Source: Minisyncoccota bacterium
Lineage (GTDB): Bacteria; Patescibacteriota; Minisyncoccia; Phycocordibacterales; UBA918
NCBI GenBank assembly: GCA_043786195.1
Contig: JAYVWI010000049.1
Coordinates: 1 to 26,813 of the forward strand
Length of the DNA: 26,813 bases
Direction of reading: 5' to 3'
In this document: positions 3 to 14,191 of the stretch, one piece after another
Layout of the letters: each line of letters starts with the position of its first letter
How positions within the stretch are numbered: position 1 is the stretch's first letter
Made by a program: the position numbers and the translations under genes
Notes under the pieces: generated by a model
Told to the model about the DNA's origin: nothing
What the model saw: only the letters and a program-made list of their open reading frames with translations
Databases searched by the model: none

Positions 3-3000
3 GCATCATTGAGCGCTGCGAGTAGTGCTTATTCCACTTCTTCGGCAATTGCTAATATTGATCCCTCTAAGTACACCGGTGCCACCTACTACTTTGAAGT
101 AGTGGCCAGTACTACGTCGGCAACCAATGCTACAGTGTCGCTTGTCACCACTGCCGGAGTAGCCGCTAAGACAATTACTATCAACGGCACCGCCTATGCC
201 CGGTACCGGTCGACGTCATTTTCGATTGGTGCGGCCACTGACTATCAAGTTCGCGTCAATAACGAAGCTGTCGGCAAGGGCGTTATCGCTGCTCGTTTGG
301 TCATACTACAAAATAACAACCCCATCAGCGTCACCCAGACGCAAGTGGAGGTGGGAAATAGTCAGACCTATACTTCTGGTACCGCCGCCACTTTTACTGC
401 GCCAAAGTATTGGAAATACACTTCTTCAAAGTGGGACGGATCACCGACGTTCTACGCTGAAGTAACCTACGCCCGTACCGTTGATGCGACGATAGCCTCA
501 TCGACTACTTATACTACTTCAGGTTCACGCAGCTTTACCGTACCGAGTGCCGTAGCAAGTACGACGGTTGTTAAATTGTGGGGAGGAGGAGGTGGAGGAG
601 GGGCAGCGTCAACCAATACAACAGGTTCTGGTTCTGGAGGTGCAGGGGGACAGTATGCCGTGAAAGTTATTTCTGGCTTGGCTGGCCTTTCCAAAACAGT
701 TGCTGTGGGAATTGCTGGTATAGGAGGCGTATCTACTGTAGCAGGTACTCGTGGTGCGACTTCGACATGGGACACTAATGTCGTAGTGGCTGTGGGAGGT
801 GCTGGCGGCGCTATCAACTCCGGCGCTGGCGGTGTTGGCGCAACTACTAATGGTGTTGGTGATACAGTAAGGGCAGGAGGTAGTGGTGCTGCCGGCACCT
901 CAGCTGGTGTCTCTGGAGGTGGTGGTGAGGGTGGCTGTTCTACTCAGACGGGAGCGAGTGCTAGTGCCGGAACCGGAGGAACTAATGCCTGCGATGGAGG
1001 TGATGGTGCCAACGGTATTTCCATCAACGGTACCCCGTCTGTGGGTACAAATCCTGGAGGAGGAGGTGCTGGAGGTCGTTCGACAGGTAACCCAAACGCT
1101 GACGGTAGTACCGGTGGTGTAGGTAAGGCCGTCATTGCTTACAATCTTAACGCTAGTGCTACTACCACCATTACCTTACAAGAATCCGACGGTACTGGAG
1201 ATGGCTTTGTGGGGTGGGCTGACAAAATCACGATTGTCTCGGGCGGGTCGGCGTCGACGCCGACCCGCGTCCGCTCAAGTTCGTTCACTCCAACAACAGG
1301 ACGCAATTACCGTATCGCTTTTAAAGAAGGCTACAACGGTGCTACCCACGCTATTTATAATGCCAAGATTATTGTTGATCAGGCCAGCTCACCGACCAAG
1401 CTCGAAGCGCAGTATCTGCTCGCAACCAAGACGATTGGGAGTGGTACCGCTTTGCAAAAAAACCTCACCTATTGGGATTCCGCCGAATGGACAAACTCCG
1501 CCAATACATACACTCATCAAGTCGACTCGGCCGACAACTCAACATCGGTGGTAGAGGTGGACACATCAGGCGGGACGCAAGTAACTGGTTCAGTGATGAC
1601 TTCACCAGACAACTCTGGTGTGTCTTCATCGATGACGATGCCGAGCACCGGAGACTTGGACATGAAGGCTACCACCAACAACGGCAATGTTTACGCCAGC
1701 CGTATCTTAGTCGCCGTGACCCCCGACACTACCGCTCCAACTCCCAATCCATACTTCACGACACTACCGACCTCGACCTCGACCGACCGCGTCTCCATGA
1801 CGTCGGTCGCTATCACCGACGCCAATGCGGTGTCGTATTACTTCAATCCTGTCGCTGGTACTTGTGGTGGTAACACAGGCACCGGCACTACGACATCGGG
1901 GTGGCAAGCAAGTAGAACTTACACCGACATCGGACTCCAGGTAAATAAATGCTATGCGTATACGGTCACCGGTAAAGATGCCGCCAACAACACCACCGCC
2001 ACATCAACCGCTTCAACCACGTACACACTGGCAGCTGTGCCGGGAGGAATGGCGTACACTAATGGTTTCGTTACAGTAACTTCAATCAAAATTACCAATA
2101 CCGAAAACGGCAATCCTGCGAGTAATCCAACAACTAATTTTGCCGTTCACGCATCAAGTACAGGAGACAGTGTCTGGAATAATAAATGGGTCAGTAATTC
2201 AGCGGGAGCAAGTTCTACTGCACATTGGCTCTCTGACTCCCAGTTAGACAACATGGTGCTGTCTAACTTAAAACCAAATACTAAGTACGATTTTGAAGTC
2301 GTTGCTCGTAATCAAAACTCTATATTGACTGCCACCAGTACCCGTACAGGTACGACGACGCGCCCTGACGTGACAGCTCCGACTCCAAACCCAGCGACGT
2401 ATTCTTCAGTGCCAAACGATACTGGCACCACGCAGATGAGCATGACCGCAACTGCAGCGAGTGATATTAGTACGCCAATTTCATATTACTTTGCGGTCGG
2501 AGCCGGTAGTTGTGGAGGTAATTATGGTACCGGTGGAACTGACTCAGGCTGGCAGACGAGTACTAGTTACACTGATACGGGACTCGATATAAATAAATGT
2601 TATGCCTACACCGTACAGTCTCGTGACTCTTTGAGTAATACCGGTACGGCTTCGGCCGCCTCCCAGGCGTACACTACTGCAGCGGTACCGTCAGCTCCGA
2701 CGATAAGCACCCAGACTGATACCACCTTCACTCTTACTAATAATCAAAACGGCAATCCGACCAATACCACCTTTGCTGTTCATGTTGCAACCGCTTCACC
2801 TTCGGATGGGACTTGGAATGGTAAATATGTAGACGCCAGTGGCAACCCTTCAGCTGCGGCGGTTTGGTTATCGGACGCACAAATTGATGGTCTGGTGGTT
2901 ACCAGTCTTCAGTTCTCGACAACCTATCCAGTAGAAATCATGGCGCGCAATGGTGATAGCGAGCAGACAGCGTATAGTAGCCAGACCAATGGTATTACTA

Positions 3001-3716
3001 CCGCCGATAGCCATGCACCAAGCCCCAACCCTCCGACATTTTTATCAAACCCATCAAACGATAGTGTGAGTCAAATATCAATGACAGCTAATGCCATTAC
3101 TGATCTTTCGACACCTGTGTCGTACTACTTTGCGGCAGTGACCGGCTCTTGTGGCGCTAATGTAGGGACTGGAGGTACTGACTCTGGTTGGCAAACTAGT
3201 ACGAGTTACTCTGACGCTGGGCTGCAAACAAACAAATGTTACGGCTACACTATTACTGGTAAGGACAACGTAGGTAATACCAGCAGTGCCTCATCTGCTA
3301 CAGTGACGTACACTTCAGCTGCTGTGCCAGGACAACTGACGCAGGTTTCTAATACCACCAACACTATTACTATTTCAAATAACGCTAATGGCAACCCGTC
3401 AGCTAATCCGACCACCTACTTCGCCGTCTACATCAGCGCCACTTCACCAACTGACCTTACTTGGGACGGAAAGTATGTTAACGGTAGTGGTAATCCGTCA
3501 GCAGTAGCTGTTTGGCTGACTAATTCTCAGCTCACCAATCTCGTCATCAACGGGCTGCAAGCGTCGACGGTATATACCGCTGCAGTAAAAGCAAGAAACG
3601 AAGATACTGATGAAACATCGTACGGAAGTACCCAAGCTCTCACTACCGGTACTGCAGCAAGCTACGACAATCGACTCATGGGAGGTATTCGCCTCAAGGG
3701 CATCAAGCTTTTCTAA
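3..3716 (+). CDS. Giant extracellular/surface protein, 5'-truncated by the window edge: three beta-rich modules, a glycine-rich domain, and 3 x (Cys-containing FN3-like + FN3-like) repeats
   Basis: Frame is open from base 3, so the TTG at 9 is probably not the real start. Ser/Thr/Gly/Asn-rich. Contains LWGGGGGGG...GGVGKAVIAY (Gly-rich domain) and FN3-like motifs (YTDxGLxxNKCYxYTV; LxxxTxYxxxVxARN) repeated at 1722, 2364 and 3003. Confidence 0.85.
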   Translation, partial: ASLSAASSAYSTSSAIANIDPSKYTGATYYFEVVASTTSATNATVSLVTTAGVAAKTITINGTAYARYRSTSFSIGAATDYQVRVNNEAVGKGVIAARLVILQNNNPISVTQTQVEVGNSQTYTSGTAATFTAPKYWKYTSSKWDGSPTFYAEVTYARTVDATIASSTTYTTSGSRSFTVPSAVASTTVVKLWGGGGGGGAASTNTTGSGSGGAGGQYAVKVISGLAGLSKTVAVGIAGIGGVSTVAGTRGATSTWDTNVVVAVGGAGGAINSGAGGVGATTNGVGDTVRAGGSGAAGTSAGVSGGGGEGGCSTQTGASASAGTGGTNACDGGDGANGISINGTPSVGTNPGGGGAGGRSTGNPNADGSTGGVGKAVIAYNLNASATTTITLQESDGTGDGFVGWADKITIVSGGSASTPTRVRSSSFTPTTGRNYRIAFKEGYNGATHAIYNAKIIVDQASSPTKLEAQYLLATKTIGSGTALQKNLTYWDSAEWTNSANTYTHQVDSADNSTSVVEVDTSGGTQVTGSVMTSPDNSGVSSSMTMPSTGDLDMKATTNNGNVYASRILVAVTPDTTAPTPNPYFTTLPTSTSTDRVSMTSVAITDANAVSYYFNPVAGTCGGNTGTGTTTSGWQASRTYTDIGLQVNKCYAYTVTGKDAANNTTATSTASTTYTLAAVPGGMAYTNGFVTVTSIKITNTENGNPASNPTTNFAVHASSTGDSVWNNKWVSNSAGASSTAHWLSDSQLDNMVLSNLKPNTKYDFEVVARNQNSILTATSTRTGTTTRPDVTAPTPNPATYSSVPNDTGTTQMSMTATAASDISTPISYYFAVGAGSCGGNYGTGGTDSGWQTSTSYTDTGLDINKCYAYTVQSRDSLSNTGTASAASQAYTTAAVPSAPTISTQTDTTFTLTNNQNGNPTNTTFAVHVATASPSDGTWNGKYVDASGNPSAAAVWLSDAQIDGLVVTSLQFSTTYPVEIMARNGDSEQTAYSSQTNGITTADSHAPSPNPPTFLSNPSNDSVSQISMTANAITDLSTPVSYYFAAVTGSCGANVGTGGTDSGWQTSTSYSDAGLQTNKCYGYTITGKDNVGNTSSASSATVTYTSAAVPGQLTQVSNTTNTITISNNANGNPSANPTTYFAVYISATSPTDLTWDGKYVNGSGNPSAVAVWLTNSQLTNLVINGLQASTVYTAAVKARNEDTDETSYGSTQALTTGTAASYDNRLMGGIRLKGIKLF

Positions 3717-3788: not shown

Positions 3789-4130
3789 ATGACAATCATA
3801 CTTCGTCTTTTGTGGAATGCTCTCGGACTATTACTTATCGCTAATTTTATACCAGGCATCACAGTGAATAGTTTTTATACCGCCGTCATCGCCGCCCTTA
3901 TTCTCGGAGTCTTCAATGCAATCTTAAAGCCCATCCTCGTCATCCTGACACTACCTATCACCTTACTCACCCTAGGCCTATTTACCTTCGTCATCAACGC
4001 CGCACTCTTCCTCTTCGCTGCTTCCTTCATCGAAGGCTTCGCCGTAACCAACTTCTGGTACGCTCTCCTCGGCTCATTCCTCATGAGTGTCATCAGCACC
4101 ATCGGCCACACCTGGATTGACGGAAAGTAG
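3789..4130 (+). CDS. Phage-holin-family (superfamily IV, YvlD-like) 4-TM membrane protein
   Basis: 113 aa hydrophobic protein with family motifs NAILKPIL, LTLPITLLTLGLFTFVINA and GF.V..FW.AL.GS. Confidence 0.8.
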   Translation: MTIILRLLWNALGLLLIANFIPGITVNSFYTAVIAALILGVFNAILKPILVILTLPITLLTLGLFTFVINAALFLFAASFIEGFAVTNFWYALLGSFLMSVISTIGHTWIDGK

Positions 4131-7652: not shown

Positions 7653-7730
7653 TGATCTCTGATAGTCGAGAAGTAATGCACTGTTGGGGATAAACCAGCG
7701 GTGCATTTTTCTGTTACAATATTCACACGT

Positions 7731-8927
7731 ATGGAGGTCGTGATCTTTGATGGTAAGGAGTATGTTAAAGCGTCTGTACTCGCTAAGAAATTTCGTTATA
7801 CAGCTGATTATCTCGGACAACTTTGTCGAGGCAAAAAAGTAGATGCTCGGCTCGTGGGACGCGCTTGGTATATCAACCTCGAGTCACTCAATGACCATCG
7901 CGACGGACGATATAAGTCCACTACAGTAAAGGTCATCGAGACTTCACCTGCAACAACTATTATTCCGACCCAAAGACCTCGCAGTAACTACTTATCTCGG
8001 ATAGATGTAGAACCAATTTTGAAGAGGAAGACCGTCGCTATTCTTAAATCAAAACACGGGATTGTAACTGAGTTCCCGGTAAAGTACGAGACAGACGAGT
8101 ATTCGTTAATACCAAGAGTAAATAAGGCTGCCGTTTTTAAAAGCGTCGTTATCGAACAAGTCGATGCAGAAAAGATTAAGGTTCATAAGGAGGAATCAGC
8201 AATAACTAATTTTAAAGCGGAAGCACTCCCGGAAGTTTTTCTTAGAGGAACGCTGAAAGTCGCTGGTCTTGAAGAGGCCACGGAGTCCCTTCTCGAAGAA
8301 AGTGAAAAAATAGACCTAGAAACAAAGCCAGGACGGCTGCCAACTCAAATGAATGAAGAAAAAAAAGCCTCGGTAGTTTCGGTGAGGCTTCTAAAACGAA
8401 GATCTAATGTCGAAGTAGCCCGGCATCCTCAGCGGGTGTCAGATAAGACGGCTCGGGACACAGGGGTGCCTACGACTATCCCGATTGTTATTGAAAAAAC
8501 AACTCATCGGCCTGAGTTAAAACCTGTTTTAATAAAAACAACACCAGAATTTGCTTCCAAAGCCCTAATAATTGCAAAACCAGCTTCTCATGTTGTTGCA
8601 CAGCACACCCCAAGGTTGGTGCACACTGCCCCGATAACTGTTCGAATGGCGTCTATAGCCTCAAATCAGTCACTGCCGAGGACTACAGCAAGCTTCAAGC
8701 CAGAATCAGTTGTGAGTAAAGAGGCGCGAAGAAAAGCAAAGAAGAGCACCTCGAAGCCAGTTGGCTGGTGGGCGCCTTTGACGGTATTATTTTTGGCCTG
8801 CACTTTGGCTGCCTTCGTACTTAGTTCTACTCTTGAGATTGTCGTCACGAAGCAGGTGTATCGATCGCATGTCGTGTCGAGTCCCCAGACATTTTTTGCG
8901 TATCTCGAGGCCTTGAAAAAGTACTAA
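7731..8927 (+). CDS. N-terminal excisionase/MerR-like HTH protein with long low-complexity linker and C-terminal TM helix
   Basis: YTADYLGQLCRGKKVDARLVGRAWYI motif; TM WWAPLTVLFLACTLAAFVLSSTL from 8766. Start moved from GTG 7701 to ATG 7731 because TGTTACAAT (7712-7720) lies 10 nt upstream. Confidence 0.75.
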   Translation: MEVVIFDGKEYVKASVLAKKFRYTADYLGQLCRGKKVDARLVGRAWYINLESLNDHRDGRYKSTTVKVIETSPATTIIPTQRPRSNYLSRIDVEPILKRKTVAILKSKHGIVTEFPVKYETDEYSLIPRVNKAAVFKSVVIEQVDAEKIKVHKEESAITNFKAEALPEVFLRGTLKVAGLEEATESLLEESEKIDLETKPGRLPTQMNEEKKASVVSVRLLKRRSNVEVARHPQRVSDKTARDTGVPTTIPIVIEKTTHRPELKPVLIKTTPEFASKALIIAKPASHVVAQHTPRLVHTAPITVRMASIASNQSLPRTTASFKPESVVSKEARRKAKKSTSKPVGWWAPLTVLFLACTLAAFVLSSTLEIVVTKQVYRSHVVSSPQTFFAYLEALKKY

Positions 8928-9002: not shown

Positions 9003-9755
9003 ATGACGAGTAGCCTCGAAATTAATGGTAAAAAGTTGCACAGCATAAAGTATGCTGCCACCCATTTTGGCTATTCCCGTGACTACGTTACTCGCCTCGC
9101 GCGGGAGCAAAAAATCATCGCCGCACAAATCGGTCGACAGTGGTTCATCGACATCGACTCGCTTGGTAGTTACTCGTCGACAATGGCACTTGAGCAAAAG
9201 GTTCGACAGCAACAGCTGAGTGAAGAGCGCAAGCGCGAACGTCAACTTACAGAACGTATCGAAAAGAACGAGATCGAGCGAGCTCACTACACGCGTCGGC
9301 TGGCGATACGTTCAAAAGTCGTCGCTGCCGCCGTCTTGCTTCTCGGTCTCACTAGTGGTGTGGCTATTGAACGGATTCCATCCGTCTCGGTGCAACTTAA
9401 CCGGCAGGTGGCGAGCGCGCCGTTCATGCAGTGGTTTCAAGGGAGCGCGAATCTAGAGCTCGCACCGCAGCCAAAAGAAAACCAGCCAACTCCGCAGGGA
9501 GCTGAGGTGGTGAATTTTTCTCATGAAGCGTTTCGACTATCGACAATGGCTGAGCCAACCGATGGCGTCCTTTTACTTCCGGCCGCCACTAGCGGCACTT
9601 CGTCTATCGATGTAAAAAAACTCTTTTCTGACGACGTCAGGATTTTGAAGGATGAAAATGGGCAAGAGTACGTTGCTCAGGTAAGCGAAAAAGGAGAAAC
9701 GATTCGAAAAATCGCCTTTGTTGTAGTGCCGGTTAGTACTGAAAAAACACCATGA
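9003..9755 (+). CDS. Second HTH-coiled coil-TM protein with extracytoplasmic C-terminal domain
   Basis: YSRDYVTRLAREQKIIAAQIGRQWFI motif, E/Q/R-rich coil, TM at about 9318-9368. TATAAT at 8982-8987. Confidence 0.78.
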   Translation: MTSSLEINGKKLHSIKYAATHFGYSRDYVTRLAREQKIIAAQIGRQWFIDIDSLGSYSSTMALEQKVRQQQLSEERKRERQLTERIEKNEIERAHYTRRLAIRSKVVAAAVLLLGLTSGVAIERIPSVSVQLNRQVASAPFMQWFQGSANLELAPQPKENQPTPQGAEVVNFSHEAFRLSTMAEPTDGVLLLPAATSGTSSIDVKKLFSDDVRILKDENGQEYVAQVSEKGETIRKIAFVVVPVSTEKTP

Positions 9756-10071
9756 GTATTTTCATTCGTAAAATTTCAGTGTTACTCCTGAGCCAGAACC
9801 TTCACCAACAGCAGATCCCGTTCCTGGTCTAGTACCAAGATATGCGCCCGAGCCAACTTCAAATCCAGACCTTGTCATATAAAATAAGTACCCAAACTCA
9901 CGATGAGGCCTTGAAACATATGGTTAGACCACAAAAGCGAAGGTAAGCGACGTATAACATACGTATGTATGTAGAAGGTTATGCACAGAAACCTTAGAAT
10001 TGTAGCCTAGAGGAGGATATAAGTTGATATTATGTAAGGAGTTCATGTAGCAGTAGCATTTAATTATCATT

Positions 10072-10785
10072 ATGAAAACATATTTAGCCAAAACAGAAGT
10101 TTTATCATACGCCGCCTTACAAGCATTGTTGTCAGCAATTCTTGTCCTCAGCCTTCTGTTCGCCGGTTTTATCGTCGCCGAGCCACGCATCAGTCACGGT
10201 CAATCAGACACTAAAACTTTCCGAATCCGTCAAACCATTACTGACGAGACATCTTTTTTTGTTTCACCGCCAAACGTCACGATGAACGGCTCAATCAGTG
10301 GTATTACTGGAGGAAATGCCACAGGTAGTTCACGTTTTGTTGTAAAATCAAACAACTCATCTGGCTACTACGTTGAAATTGCTTATTATAACAACCCCGG
10401 TGCGTATGCTATGTTTGGGGACAAAGACTCAGGCGAACAGCTGCGCGACTACGGTGGAGATGTGGCGGGTGAACCTTCGTACAACTTCACTGCCAGTACT
10501 GCCGCACAATTTGCCTACACGGTAAACTCATCAACAACTGGTGACACTGACGCTTCTTTCAAAAACAACGGTTCAGCGTGTAACACTGGTGCTACGCAGA
10601 CATTTGGTAAGTGTTGGAAGAAAGCAACAACTTCAGCTTTCCGTATCATCAGTCGTGCTACAGCCGCTACAGCTGGTGCAACTTCGACCGTTTACTTTAA
10701 GGTAAATGTACCGTCTGGCGCCGTCCCAATCCCTACTGCTCAGACCTACACTGCTACTGCTACCTTGTCAGTGTTTACCCAATAA
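10072..10785 (+). CDS. Secreted WxL-like/pilin-like beta-sandwich protein (putative major subunit)
   Basis: Long signal peptide (about 43 aa). GYYVEI and YTATATLSV resemble the two WxL-type strand motifs but lack Trp. Carries a C-x10-CW pair and is paralogous to 11848-12609. Confidence 0.7.
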   Translation: MKTYLAKTEVLSYAALQALLSAILVLSLLFAGFIVAEPRISHGQSDTKTFRIRQTITDETSFFVSPPNVTMNGSISGITGGNATGSSRFVVKSNNSSGYYVEIAYYNNPGAYAMFGDKDSGEQLRDYGGDVAGEPSYNFTASTAAQFAYTVNSSTTGDTDASFKNNGSACNTGATQTFGKCWKKATTSAFRIISRATAATAGATSTVYFKVNVPSGAVPIPTAQTYTATATLSVFTQ

Positions 10786-10806
10786 GGTACTCTGTAGTCA
10801 CACTAT

Positions 10807-11829
10807 ATGGCTACTTTTGCTCGGACATTTCTAGTTTTTGCATTGCTTATAACACCTCTCCAAGGAGAGGTGTTTGTGCGTGCGCAAGAAGCTTCCTCTA
10901 CCGCTTCTACGACACCTGTGGTCGCAGAGCAGCAAGGAAATTGGTATCGCTCTGAACGAATCGAAGGAAATATCGAAGTGGGGGACTTCGTGGTTGGGCC
11001 TGGCCGAGCAGAAATCACTGTTTCGCCCGGCGAAACAGTGATTCAAGAAATCACCGTCACCAACCGCATTAGCAAGAACCGTACCTTTAATCTTGAAGTA
11101 GAAGATATCACGGGTAGTGCTGATGGAAGTAGTGCCGTCAGCCTTACAAACGGCCAGCGTGGCCCGTATAGTATCAAAGACTACGTCTCATTCCCCCAAA
11201 AAAGTTTTACCCTAGACCTCGGTGAACGTGCTCGCATCCCAGTAAAAATCACCATCCCTGCCGACGCTGAGCCAGGTGGTTTTTATGGAAGTGTCCTGGT
11301 GTCTACCGACCGATCTCCAGACGAAAAAGCCGATGACGTTTCTCGTTCACCAGTGATTGCTCGGATTGGTTCTTTGCTTTTCGTTCGAGTTCGCGGCGAT
11401 GCCGAAATCGGCGGTCAAACCAAAAGTATCAGCACTGTGGGTGACAAAATGTGGTACGAAAAAGGTCCAATAAACCTCAGTATTGCCTACGAAAATACCG
11501 GAGTAGTTCACGTCAATCCTTATGGAGAGGTGTCTATTAAGAATATGTTTGGTGAGGAAGTGGGGTTTGTCGAACTCGATCCATGGTTTGTACTCCCTAA
11601 GTCGCTTCGTAGTCGAGAGTTTGACTGGGACAGAGAGTTCCTTCTTGGTCGCTACACAGTCACAGCAAAGATAAATCGGGGGTACGATAACAAAATTGAT
11701 GAAGTTTCAACAACCTTCTGGGTTTTGCCGTGGAAGATTGTTCTAGGAGCATTTGCTGTTCTCTTCATCCTCATCTTCAGTCTTCGTGCATTTTTCCGCA
11801 ATTTTGAATTTTCTAAAAAGAAGAAGTAA
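10807..11829 (+). CDS. DUF916/DUF3324-like (WxL-interacting-type) protein with C-terminal TM anchor
   Basis: Signal peptide; EITVSPGE...ITVTN, FTL..GER..IPVKITIPADAEPGG.YG, ENTG.VH..P.G, LGRYTV; ends FWVLPW-TM-KKKK. Confidence 0.75.
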   Translation: MATFARTFLVFALLITPLQGEVFVRAQEASSTASTTPVVAEQQGNWYRSERIEGNIEVGDFVVGPGRAEITVSPGETVIQEITVTNRISKNRTFNLEVEDITGSADGSSAVSLTNGQRGPYSIKDYVSFPQKSFTLDLGERARIPVKITIPADAEPGGFYGSVLVSTDRSPDEKADDVSRSPVIARIGSLLFVRVRGDAEIGGQTKSISTVGDKMWYEKGPINLSIAYENTGVVHVNPYGEVSIKNMFGEEVGFVELDPWFVLPKSLRSREFDWDREFLLGRYTVTAKINRGYDNKIDEVSTTFWVLPWKIVLGAFAVLFILIFSLRAFFRNFEFSKKKK

Positions 11830-11847
11830 ATCTTTTCGGTGAGACAT

Positions 11848-12609
11848 ATGAAACAGGACTTCACCAGATCCGTCGCTCTTGCCATCATCGCTACGGTAGT
11901 GGTTTTGTCTGGGCAACAGCTGAGTTTTGCAGCTGTGGCGTCAAGTACAAATTACAAGCTACAAAGCGACAGTATCAACTTTGGTGGCGGTTTGTCGACC
12001 TCAACCTCATACCGTCAGGAAAGTACTGGTGGTGAAGTGGCGACCGGAGAAGCAACGAGTACTTCATACAAGCTTAAGGCCGGCTATCAACAGATGCAGG
12101 AAGTGTATATCAGTATGACAGTACCAAGTGACGTCACGCTCTCGCCGTCGCTTGCTGGCCTCACGGGAGGTACCTCTAATGGATCAACTACGGTGACAGT
12201 GACCACCGACAGTCCAGCTGGCTATAGTCTTAGTATAAGAGCAGGAAATAACCCAGCTATGCAAAAAGGCGCCAGTACGATCGCTGATTACAATCAAGGT
12301 GTCGACGCAGACTATTCTTTTTCGGTTGTCACCAATGCTGCGAGTTTCGGGTTTTCACCATCGAGTGCGGACGTCGTTACTGCCTTTAAAGATAATGGCT
12401 CTTTGTGTGGCGTAGGTTCTTCTGATGCGCCACTCGCATGTTGGGCTGGACTCACTACATCTCCGATTATTATCTCTCAAGGTAGTGGCTCAAACCACCC
12501 AAGTGGCGCTGCTACCACGGTTAATTTTAGAGTTGGTATTGGAAGTGGTGCCGGAGTTGAGTCTGGTGTTTATACTGCAACCACAACTTTAACTGCTCTT
12601 CCGTTATAA
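11848..12609 (+). CDS. Secreted WxL-like paralog with N-terminal 3x19-aa repeat module
   Basis: ATG 11848 preferred over GTG 11839. GYSLSI, FKDNGSLC-x10-CW and GVYTATTTLTA align with 10072-10785. Confidence 0.72.
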   Translation: MKQDFTRSVALAIIATVVVLSGQQLSFAAVASSTNYKLQSDSINFGGGLSTSTSYRQESTGGEVATGEATSTSYKLKAGYQQMQEVYISMTVPSDVTLSPSLAGLTGGTSNGSTTVTVTTDSPAGYSLSIRAGNNPAMQKGASTIADYNQGVDADYSFSVVTNAASFGFSPSSADVVTAFKDNGSLCGVGSSDAPLACWAGLTTSPIIISQGSGSNHPSGAATTVNFRVGIGSGAGVESGVYTATTTLTALPL

Positions 12610-12616
12610 TAGAGAG

Positions 12617-14191
12617 ATGAGATTTTTACTCGCCCTGCTTTTTTGTCTTGTATTGCCGGCGACGGCAGTATTCGCCAATGATACCGGCGACTTCAACATT
12701 AGAGTATTTGGCTCTGATGACATCGTTGCTCCAACGACTCCTACACTTGCCCAACCGACCCCTATTTCCACTGACCAGATTGATATTTCTTGGTCGGTGT
12801 CCACTGACAATTTCATAGTATCGGGATATGTAGTATCTCGAAACGGGCTTCCAATTGCGACCACGACGCTCACAAATTATTCCGATACCGGTCTGGTCGC
12901 CTCCACGACATATACCTATGCTGTACGTGCATTTGATCCTTCCTTTAATTATTCAAGTTCATCAAACGCGCTATCGACGACGACATTTAAGATTCCGCCG
13001 CCACCGCCAGTTTCTGCTGGTGGAGCACAGAGTACCGCCACGAGAGTGAATCTAGACAAATTTATCGTCACTTCGGGCGTTTCAACCACTACGTTTTATA
13101 TCAAGACTTCTCATCCCGCTCGGTTTGAAATGAGATGGGGAAGAACTAGCTCGTATGAGCTTGGATATATTGCCAATACCAAATTCGTCAGTACGTATGA
13201 GACTACCTTGACTGGCCTTGAGCCAGCGACGACCTACGAATATGAGGTAATCGGGTATACGCCATTTGGAACTGCTTTTGTTCTAGAACGTGGCAAATTT
13301 ACAACTCTCGGCGAGGCTGGCGCGCAGTCCCCAGCGAACGTTAATCGCTTCAAGGCTGTCCCGAACGGACTTGACGTGCAGCTCTCATGGCAACTATCTG
13401 AAGCTGCCAAGTATCAATACGTTCGGATTGTACGAAACCACCTCGGTTTTCCGAGTCACTTGCAAGATGGTGCTATTGTCTATCAAGGAGACGGCACAAG
13501 CTTTACCGATAAAAATATTTTAAGCCAATATTCCCCCGTCTATTACACAGCATTTGTGATGGACGCTGCTGGAAATGTTTCTTCTGGTGCGATTGCAAAA
13601 GCTTATGTAGTAGACGGTAATCCTTCGACCGTAAAACCAAACCCAGAAGGGAAGCCAGATATTAAGCCTGCCGATGGTTTTACTCCTGCTGAAGAAGTTC
13701 CAGCGGGGACACGTATGCCAGATATGTCGGAAATATTCCTACATCAAGCCGACGTCCAGTATTCGTTTTCCAGTCAAAATATCGAACTCGACAGCAACCA
13801 ATACTTCACACTCTCCATCCCCAAAACCGCTGTTTCAGACAATTTGAAGACCATAGTCGTGACACTTACAGATCCAACGGACTCGAGGCAAACATCGTCA
13901 TTCTTACTCCGTATCAATAAGAATAAAACGGCCTACGAAGCAGTTATCGCCCCGCTAGGTTTAGAGGGCACCTCACGGATTTTGGTAGACATCTACGATT
14001 TTGACGCGAAAGTGATAGGAACATTCCAGAAAACAATTACCTTTAAAAATTTGTACAAGATTGGTGCGATGCCTATTTTCCCCGATCTCATTATTTACGG
14101 GTTGAAGCGATTTGCTCCAGTCGTAGCGCTACCGATATTAATTGGTGTGCTTTTCTTTTTCTATCGCCGCCGACACCGCGACCACGCTTGA
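12617..14191 (+). CDS. Multi-FN3/Ig-like surface protein with C-terminal TM anchor
   Basis: Signal peptide; FN3 motif APTTP...ISWS.STDN..V.GY...Y.DTGL..STTYTY.VRAFD; two more FN3-like domains; TM FAPVVALPILIGVLFFFY followed by RRRHR. Confidence 0.82.
   Translation: MRFLLALLFCLVLPATAVFANDTGDFNIRVFGSDDIVAPTTPTLAQPTPISTDQIDISWSVSTDNFIVSGYVVSRNGLPIATTTLTNYSDTGLVASTTYTYAVRAFDPSFNYSSSSNALSTTTFKIPPPPPVSAGGAQSTATRVNLDKFIVTSGVSTTTFYIKTSHPARFEMRWGRTSSYELGYIANTKFVSTYETTLTGLEPATTYEYEVIGYTPFGTAFVLERGKFTTLGEAGAQSPANVNRFKAVPNGLDVQLSWQLSEAAKYQYVRIVRNHLGFPSHLQDGAIVYQGDGTSFTDKNILSQYSPVYYTAFVMDAAGNVSSGAIAKAYVVDGNPSTVKPNPEGKPDIKPADGFTPAEEVPAGTRMPDMSEIFLHQADVQYSFSSQNIELDSNQYFTLSIPKTAVSDNLKTIVVTLTDPTDSRQTSSFLLRINKNKTAYEAVIAPLGLEGTSRILVDIYDFDAKVIGTFQKTITFKNLYKIGAMPIFPDLIIYGLKRFAPVVALPILIGVLFFFYRRRHRDHA

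Follow-up and report, generated by a model that had tools for sequence, protein, structure and literature searches.

Gene arrangement and conservation of the locus

A 26,813-nt window, the whole stretch of DNA analysed, covers contig JAYVWI010000049.1 of a Minisyncoccota bacterium, a member of the lineage called Paceibacteria (Parcubacteria) in the candidate phyla radiation (CPR). Four co-oriented open reading frames (ORFs) on its plus strand are the subject of this study: ORF1 (10072-10785, 237 amino acids (aa)), ORF2 (10807-11829, 340 aa), ORF3 (11848-12609, 253 aa) and ORF4 (12617-14191, 524 aa), separated by gaps of 21, 18 and 7 nt. All four proteins carry hydrophobic N-terminal leaders, with cleavage sites placed by eye; at the C-terminus of ORF2 and of ORF4 a hydrophobic segment also precedes basic residues. 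The operon quite probably encodes a donor-strand pilus that is assembled without usher and sortase, with ORF1 as shaft, ORF2 as membrane-tethered chaperone, ORF3 as tip or adaptor and ORF4 as terminator and anchor. Two pilus systems described in 2026 preprints serve as reference, the Pam pili of Candidatus Mycosynbacter amalyticus (CPR, Saccharimonadia; PMC13278184) and the pilus built by the Elr/WxL cluster of Enterococcus faecalis (bioRxiv 10.64898/2026.10.17.759780).

A first-pass annotation of this DNA had assigned corresponding roles to the four genes, and these roles are now backed by independent evidence. Its observations were confirmed in part. The ORF coordinates bear out the four co-oriented genes and their spacing, and the translations agree with the two similar peptides named just past the leaders, DTKTFRIRQTI in ORF1 (10207-10239) and DTGDFNIRVFG in ORF4 (12680-12712). 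The motifs G(I/L)TGG, GY(Y/S)(V/L)xI, FKxNGSxC-x10-CW and YTAT(A/T)TL are present in both ORF1 and ORF3, as had been claimed. The observation that did not stand was the absence of the strand from the second paralogue, ORF3, which is treated with that protein.

A scan of species-representative genomes yielded 36 loci. The conservation of gene order had been set beforehand as a test able to overturn the filament proposal; the order ORF1-ORF2-ORF3-ORF4 is kept in 33 of the 36 loci, and the other three (L017, L020 and L036) are cut by contig ends. Genes for GAPDH and RpiB follow downstream in 31 of the 33 complete loci, the remaining two stopping at ORF4. This fixed neighbourhood of housekeeping genes suggests that the system may be a core organelle, plausibly one for host contact. 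L017 and L020 are short contigs of one metagenome-assembled genome, each with ORF1-ORF2-ORF3, and represent either two copies of the operon or strain variants within one bin.

ORF1, the candidate major pilin

In ORF1 (10072..10785, plus strand) a leader (residues 1-44) precedes an N-terminal strand (residues ~45-60) and one β-sandwich; the mature protein comprises about 193 aa in a single domain with the strand at its N-terminus. The protein collection contained 408 relatives at E ≤ 1e-3; every named one is labelled 'hypothetical protein', and where a source is given it is Kaiserbacteria, Nomurabacteria, Parcubacteria, Pacebacteria or the Patescibacteria group. An alignment of 28 homologues placed the N-terminal strand among the best-conserved parts of the protein: Q54 and I56 are invariant, and F50, T55, D58, E59, S61 and F62 are conserved to at least 90 %. 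The cysteine pair C170/C181 and the C-terminal strand YTATATL are invariant as well. A second test fixed beforehand asked for the N-terminal strand in homologues of both ORF1 and ORF4, and conservation was found in both families, the ORF4 counts being given with that protein. The long leader of ORF1 (10072-10203) includes a hydrophobic stretch of about 23 residues, and its AEPxISHGQ end is unusually conserved, E37-P38 being invariant in the same 28 sequences; this end may be a special processing or recognition site.

An AlphaFold2 model of the mature ORF1 monomer reached a predicted local distance difference test (pLDDT) of 91.3 and a predicted template modelling score (pTM) of 0.86; its residues 1-15 (SDTKTFRIRQTITDE) are not part of a strand, which bears only indirectly on the third test fixed beforehand, that for an open groove in the subunit. 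Foldseek ranked mostly donor-strand subunits at the top, namely CfaB, Fim subunits, CfaE, TasA, CS20, Csu, PapA and CupE, and the model weakly suggests that the nearest folds of ORF1 are donor-strand pilins. An assignment of ORF1 as a TasA-like matrix fibre, which would assemble by itself without a chaperone and leave ORF2 to ORF4 to other surface roles, could draw on the matches to the TasA fibre 8aur_A (E = 0.022, prob 0.51, template modelling (TM) scores 0.28/0.25) and to TLP-1a 9ikj_A (E = 0.047). However, chaperone-usher pilins outrank TasA in the same search, a TasA-type family match was not obtained for ORF1, and ORF2, the strictly conserved neighbour of ORF1, has a chaperone fold. Thus a TasA-like fibre is very improbable.

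ORF1 and ORF3 are, by sequence comparison, homologous and hence paralogues: BLASTP aligned them at E = 3e-19 with 30 % identity over 185 residues, and an hhalign comparison of the two families gave E = 2.5e-35. The first-pass description of these subunits as WxL proteins was not borne out by Pfam, as PF13731 matched none of 28 ORF1-family and none of 33 ORF3-family sequences at E ≤ 10, and a WxL-domain identity was rejected for both. The sole link of the subunits to WxL is a language-model lead, in which WxL occurs in 6 of the 30 nearest Atlas clusters (score 0.92).

ORF2, a candidate membrane-anchored chaperone

ORF2 (10807..11829, plus strand) was examined with Pfam, a structure model and Foldseek, and is a candidate for a membrane-anchored donor-strand chaperone. 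Behind the leader lie a DUF916-like β-sandwich (residues 71-165), a second β-sandwich extending to residue ~306 and a C-terminal membrane helix (residues 309-332, nt 11731-11802, plus strand). A long hairpin is formed by the strands 157-167 and 185-195 with a loop of low confidence between them. The protein scored above the cutoff of Pfam PF06030 (WxLIP_PGBD, formerly DUF916; 28.4 versus 27.3 bits), and the same family was matched by 32 of 35 ORF2 homologues (E ≤ 0.01). The family profile also matched EfmWxLIP1 (9i25_C, 9i1y_A) by sequence at about 1e-6 (best E = 9.4e-7). In the AlphaFold2 model (pLDDT 83.7) two β-sandwich domains and the C-terminal helix were present. The first Foldseek match was the WxLIP of Enterococcus faecium (E = 1.3e-12), including an entry 'bound to long WxL', followed by the chaperones of chaperone-usher systems CfaA, CsuC, Caf1M, EcpB, FimC, CupB2 and FaeE (1e-6 to 1e-9); RbmA was also among the matches. 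Pfam returned no PapD_N (PF00345) match for ORF2. The PF06030 assignment, the EfmWxLIP1 match, the WxLIP/chaperone fold and the C-terminal helix together support the membrane-bound chaperone role proposed earlier for this gene.

At thresholds of E ≤ 1e-3, 1e-10 and 1e-30 the ORF2 profile retrieved 8075, 3793 and 636 representatives, respectively, which points to a much wider chaperone family. When ORF2 and the best 149 of the 8075 representatives were taken together, 79 of these 150 proteins matched PF06030. Two of the same 150 proteins contained a PamT match besides, and this sequence evidence suggests fused or adjacent genes. Three single ORFs, P0244, P0275 and P0314, join a DUF916-like chaperone part to a PamT/ORF3-like part. 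These are genuine fusions or else result from gene calls that read through, and in both cases they show that the two genes lie side by side in other lineages.

A conserved stem-loop over the ORF2 start

A 7-bp stem-loop (GTAGTCA / TGGCTAC; 10794..10814, plus strand) is located between ORF1 and ORF2, with the start codon of ORF2 (10807) at the boundary of the loop and the 3'-arm. It is conserved in 36 sequences with the consensus TAAGGTAnnCTGTAGTCAnnnnnTATGACTAC. Pairing was observed in 85.1 % of 222 cells, versus 20-54 % with slid partners; 7 cells were changed on both sides, a value reached in 1 of 500 shuffles. The structure may set the ratio of pilin to chaperone or stabilise the pilin mRNA. 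In the assembly scheme proposed below, the hairpin over the start codon would probably hold the output of chaperone under that of pilin.

ORF3, a candidate PamT-like tip or adaptor

ORF3 (11848..12609, plus strand; alternative GTG start at 11839) consists of a leader, three strand-like units of the pattern [ST][ST]xYx[LQ] (residues ~31-85) and a pilin domain paralogous to ORF1. Contrary to the first-pass annotation, which had seen no strand in this paralogue, there are three in tandem, STNYKLQS, STSYRQES and STSYKLKA. The first unit directly follows the leader and the third aligns with the ORF1 strand in BLASTP and hhalign. The NCBIfam model of the 'CPR-type pilus protein PamT' (NF058579) matched ORF3 at E = 5.5e-11 over profile positions 5-132 of 241, and likewise all 33 of 33 ORF3 homologues (best 1.4e-14). 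By this sequence match ORF3 is a distant PamT homologue, far below equivalog level, and the tip role suggested earlier for this gene gains support from it.

The same pilus may be imagined with its roles shuffled: ORF3 would be an internal adaptor or minor pilin comparable to ElrC, accepting one strand and donating another, and the true tip would be encoded elsewhere or be absent. The positions of the strand-like units, directly after the leader and at the place of the ORF1 strand, fit such a role, and the Elr preprint (bioRxiv 10.64898/2026.10.17.759780) describes operons without a tip and an ElrC of uncertain place. Against it stand the homology of ORF3 to PamT, itself a proposed tip, the adhesin-like LamG inserts in some ORF3 relatives and the lack of any other pilin-like gene within the 33 complete loci. 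We regard the shuffled arrangement as rather unlikely and retain ORF3 as candidate tip of the pilus, with the qualification given below.

Seventeen longer ORF3 relatives of 444-670 aa (P0241-P0257) were obtained. Three have a Laminin_G_3 domain above the cutoff, two of them with an additional DUF2341, and a fourth has a DUF2341 below the threshold. Two contain Hint/intein domains, one is a fusion of chaperone and ORF3, one shows only a sub-threshold DUF4131, and nine are without a Pfam match. Hint/intein domains are odd in relatives of a secreted pilus protein. In L021 (9753-11555) the first strand of the domain precedes the insert of the ORF3 relative. At a TM score of ~0.5, the Atlas model of ORF3 can be aligned with parts of DUF285/leucine-rich repeat proteins, which is a lead only; among the rows recording taxa, the commonest phylum of these neighbours is Saccharimonadota.

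ORF4, the candidate terminator and anchor

ORF4 (12617..14191, plus strand) is a PamR-like terminator or anchor candidate. Its leader (residues 1-21) is directly followed by the N-terminal strand DTGDFNIRVFG (12680-12712, plus strand), tandem FN3 domains (residues ~31-140 and ~160-270), a further C-terminal region, a membrane segment (residues ~499-516, nt 14111-14164, plus strand) and the tail RRRHRDHA; the sequence is devoid of an LPxTG motif. Both the window copy and those of 33 loci preserve the pattern D[TS]xxFx[IV][RKS] right behind the leader. A position-specific scoring matrix (PSSM) of eight columns from the ORF1 family (DTKTFRIR) found its best match within the first 45 residues in 30 of 34 ORF4 homologues of about 530 aa, where about 3 would be expected by position; a PSSM of the five core columns did so in 21 of 34. 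The N-terminal similarity of ORF1 and ORF4 exceeds chance and, as judged by these sequence comparisons, is real but short. The PamR protein of the Pam system is described as an RbmA-like protein with tandem FnIII domains, an N-terminal strand and a C-terminal helix, and proposed as terminator and anchor of the fibre (PMC13278184). The anchor role earlier given to ORF4 is supported by this published architecture, with which its N-terminal strand, tandem FN3 domains and C-terminal membrane segment coincide.

The proteins might instead form a surface complex without filaments, in which ORF1 and ORF3 are displayed singly, with ORF2 and ORF4 as their membrane scaffolds. This corresponds to the older view of csc/WxL clusters: DUF916/DUF3324 proteins are described as binding WxL proteins and linking bacterial and host surfaces (PMC10599100), and ORF2 belongs to the 'WxL interacting protein' family. 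Yet such clusters make donor-strand-exchanged fibres according to the Elr preprint (bioRxiv 10.64898/2026.10.17.759780), and the ORF1 strand hardly varies, is left unpaired in the monomer model and has a mimic in ORF4. A nearly invariant, unpaired strand with a mimic in a second protein is hard to explain without strand donation between subunits. A non-filamentous complex is therefore unlikely, and a pilus is the preferred explanation.

Proposed assembly of the pilus

The pilus reading is built on homologies, folds, conservation and synteny; from these we infer strand insertion, the order of the subunits and their function. The leaders suggest that all four proteins would be exported by the Sec system. 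As its fold and family indicate, ORF2, held in the membrane by the C-terminal helix, would lend a strand of its long hairpin to the incomplete β-sandwich of newly exported subunits. ORF3 would initiate the fibre at its distal end, in some relatives with a lectin-like insert. ORF1 subunits would then join at the base, each fitting its N-terminal strand, by its F-x-I-x-Q-x-I face, into the preceding subunit's groove beside the invariant YTATATL strand. Growth would stop when the last pilin receives the ORF1-like N-terminal strand of ORF4 (F-x-I-x-V), and the FN3 spacers and the C-terminal helix of ORF4 would tie the fibre to the membrane; both steps have been proposed in this form for PamR.

Several results weigh against this scheme. 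The best Foldseek match of ORF1, CfaB, was found at E = 3.9e-3 (TM 0.41/0.51), and none reached E ≤ 1e-3. ORF1 matched no Pfam or NCBIfam family, and 28 homologues likewise gave no NCBIfam match. The ORF1 profile detected nothing meaningful among PDB sequences, and single-sequence searches with ORF1 and ORF3 also stayed at chance level. In ORF2 the partner domain PF11797 (DUF3324) is missing, with 0 of 35 homologues and 0 of the wider set of 150 matching at E ≤ 0.01. The PamT score of ORF3, 42.3 bits, is far under the equivalog cutoff of 240 bits. ORF3 retains strand-like units, so its designation as tip is not secure; instead of a strict tip, it could represent an adaptor. A PSSM of ten columns, extended into QTIT, had its best match within the first 70 residues in only 12 of 34 ORF4 homologues, and the likeness of the ORF1 and ORF4 strands thus spans about 8 residues.

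Other features of the window

The 316 nt upstream of ORF1 (9756..10071; not assigned to a strand) are non-coding and presumed to be the promoter and leader region of the operon. Promoter-like matches were no commoner there than in shuffled sequences, a terminator scan likewise gave no excess over shuffles, and Rfam gave no match. Just upstream of the operon, 7701-8927 and 9003-9755 each encode a protein that begins with an HTH_17/excisionase-like domain (sub-threshold) and contains a hydrophobic segment further on. Homologues are found upstream of the operon in 9 of 36 loci and directly adjoin ORF1 in 6; a regulatory link to the operon is possible. The rest of the window holds housekeeping genes, namely Obg, GatB, GAPDH, RpiB, Rpe, a split transketolase, Def, a release factor, S2 and EF-Ts. 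A Pfam scan of 22 proteins of the window revealed no usher, PapD_N (PF00345) or sortase. At the start of the window an open-ended protein of at least 1237 aa (3-3716) matches Gly_rich_2 marginally; next comes a 113-aa membrane protein of the Phage_holin_4_2 family (3789-4130, E = 2.8e-32).

Comparison with known pilus systems

The Paceibacteria (Parcubacteria) account for a very large and uncultured share of the CPR. A conserved four-gene pilus kit is a concrete candidate for the means by which they touch their hosts. The pilus kind itself is already known from the two 2026 preprints, and this operon most likely encodes a new, simpler four-gene form of it in a lineage covered by neither. As far as their accessible texts were searched by term, neither preprint names the other system, Paceibacteria or Parcubacteria. 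Our literature search retrieved no paper joining 'DUF916' with 'Patescibacteria' or 'Parcubacteria' with 'chaperone-usher'.

In the Pam system (PMC13278184) an internal linker strand joins the two-domain pilins PamA and PamB by donor-strand exchange, the PapD/FimC-like chaperones PamC and PamD are anchored in the membrane, and PamT is a single-domain tip; its prevalence is highest in Saccharimonadia and Microgenomatia. The operon studied here shares with it the CPR lineage, leaders on all parts, the absence of usher and sortase, a membrane-anchored PapD/FimC-like chaperone (ORF2 with two β-sandwiches and the helix 309-332), and paired cysteines in the pilins; the candidate tip ORF3 resembles PamT, though at a score far below equivalog level. 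Both also have an FN3 protein that bears a strand at its N-terminus and a helix at its C-terminus, ORF4 resembling PamR by architecture only. The pilins differ: PamA and PamB, compared here by their description, have two domains, 38.7 and 55.3 kDa and the donor strand in an internal linker, whereas ORF1 is a single domain of ~190 residues with an N-terminal strand. The pam operon is longer and includes two chaperones and PamE, whereas four genes are present here, and ATP synthase genes lie downstream of pam in place of GAPDH-RpiB.

In the Elr system (bioRxiv 10.64898/2026.10.17.759780) the pilin ElrD is composed of a ~15-residue N-terminal donor strand and an incomplete β-sandwich, ElrE is a membrane-anchored DUF916/DUF3324 chaperone, and the terminator is LPxTG-anchored; its authors hold the system to be confined to Bacillota. 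Pilin architecture is one point of agreement: a donor strand of ~15 residues lies at the N-terminus, in front of a single incomplete β-sandwich. Common features are further a DUF916-family chaperone with a C-terminal membrane helix, a terminator that is essentially a donor strand plus an anchor, and tip proteins with variable payloads. On the other side, the WxL domain of the Elr pilin (PF13731) was found in neither ORF1 nor ORF3, and the PF11797 domain of the Elr chaperone was not found in ORF2. The strand motif is [S/T]-x-[G/A]-x-[V/I]-x-F in Elr and F-x-I-x-Q-x-I here, and anchoring by LPxTG and sortase contrasts with an FN3 protein with a membrane helix and no sortase among the scanned proteins of the window.

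Classical chaperone-usher pili (CFA/I, Csu, type 1 and P) are similar at the level of the fold only, and weakly so for ORF1: the ORF2 model resembles CfaA, CsuC, Caf1M, EcpB and FimC, the best matches of ORF1 are CfaB, Fim subunits and CsuA/B, and donor-strand complementation or exchange is the proposed principle in both. They differ from the present operon, which has neither usher nor outer membrane and in which the chaperone is tethered to the membrane and lacks a PapD_N match. TasA/camelysin-like fibres agree in neither fold nor family, 8aur_A being matched at E = 0.022 with TM 0.28/0.25 and no family match being obtained.

The operon is a mixed variant, Elr-like in its pilin architecture and chaperone family and Pam-like in its tip and anchor. 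It lacks defining features of each system, that is the WxL domain, PF11797 and LPxTG of the one and the two-domain pilin of the other. This mixture suggests that the Pam and Elr systems are related. It is quite possible, if tentative, that Pam in the CPR and WxL/Elr in Bacillota belong to one old superfamily of donor-strand pili, usher-less and chaperone-driven, in single-membrane bacteria, of which this operon would be a minimal linking form. The comparison bears on two claims of 2026, that Pam pili differ from all other filaments (PMC13278184) and that the DUF916 pilus pathway is restricted to Bacillota (bioRxiv 10.64898/2026.10.17.759780): in these CPR genomes a DUF916-type chaperone stands beside a PamT homologue.

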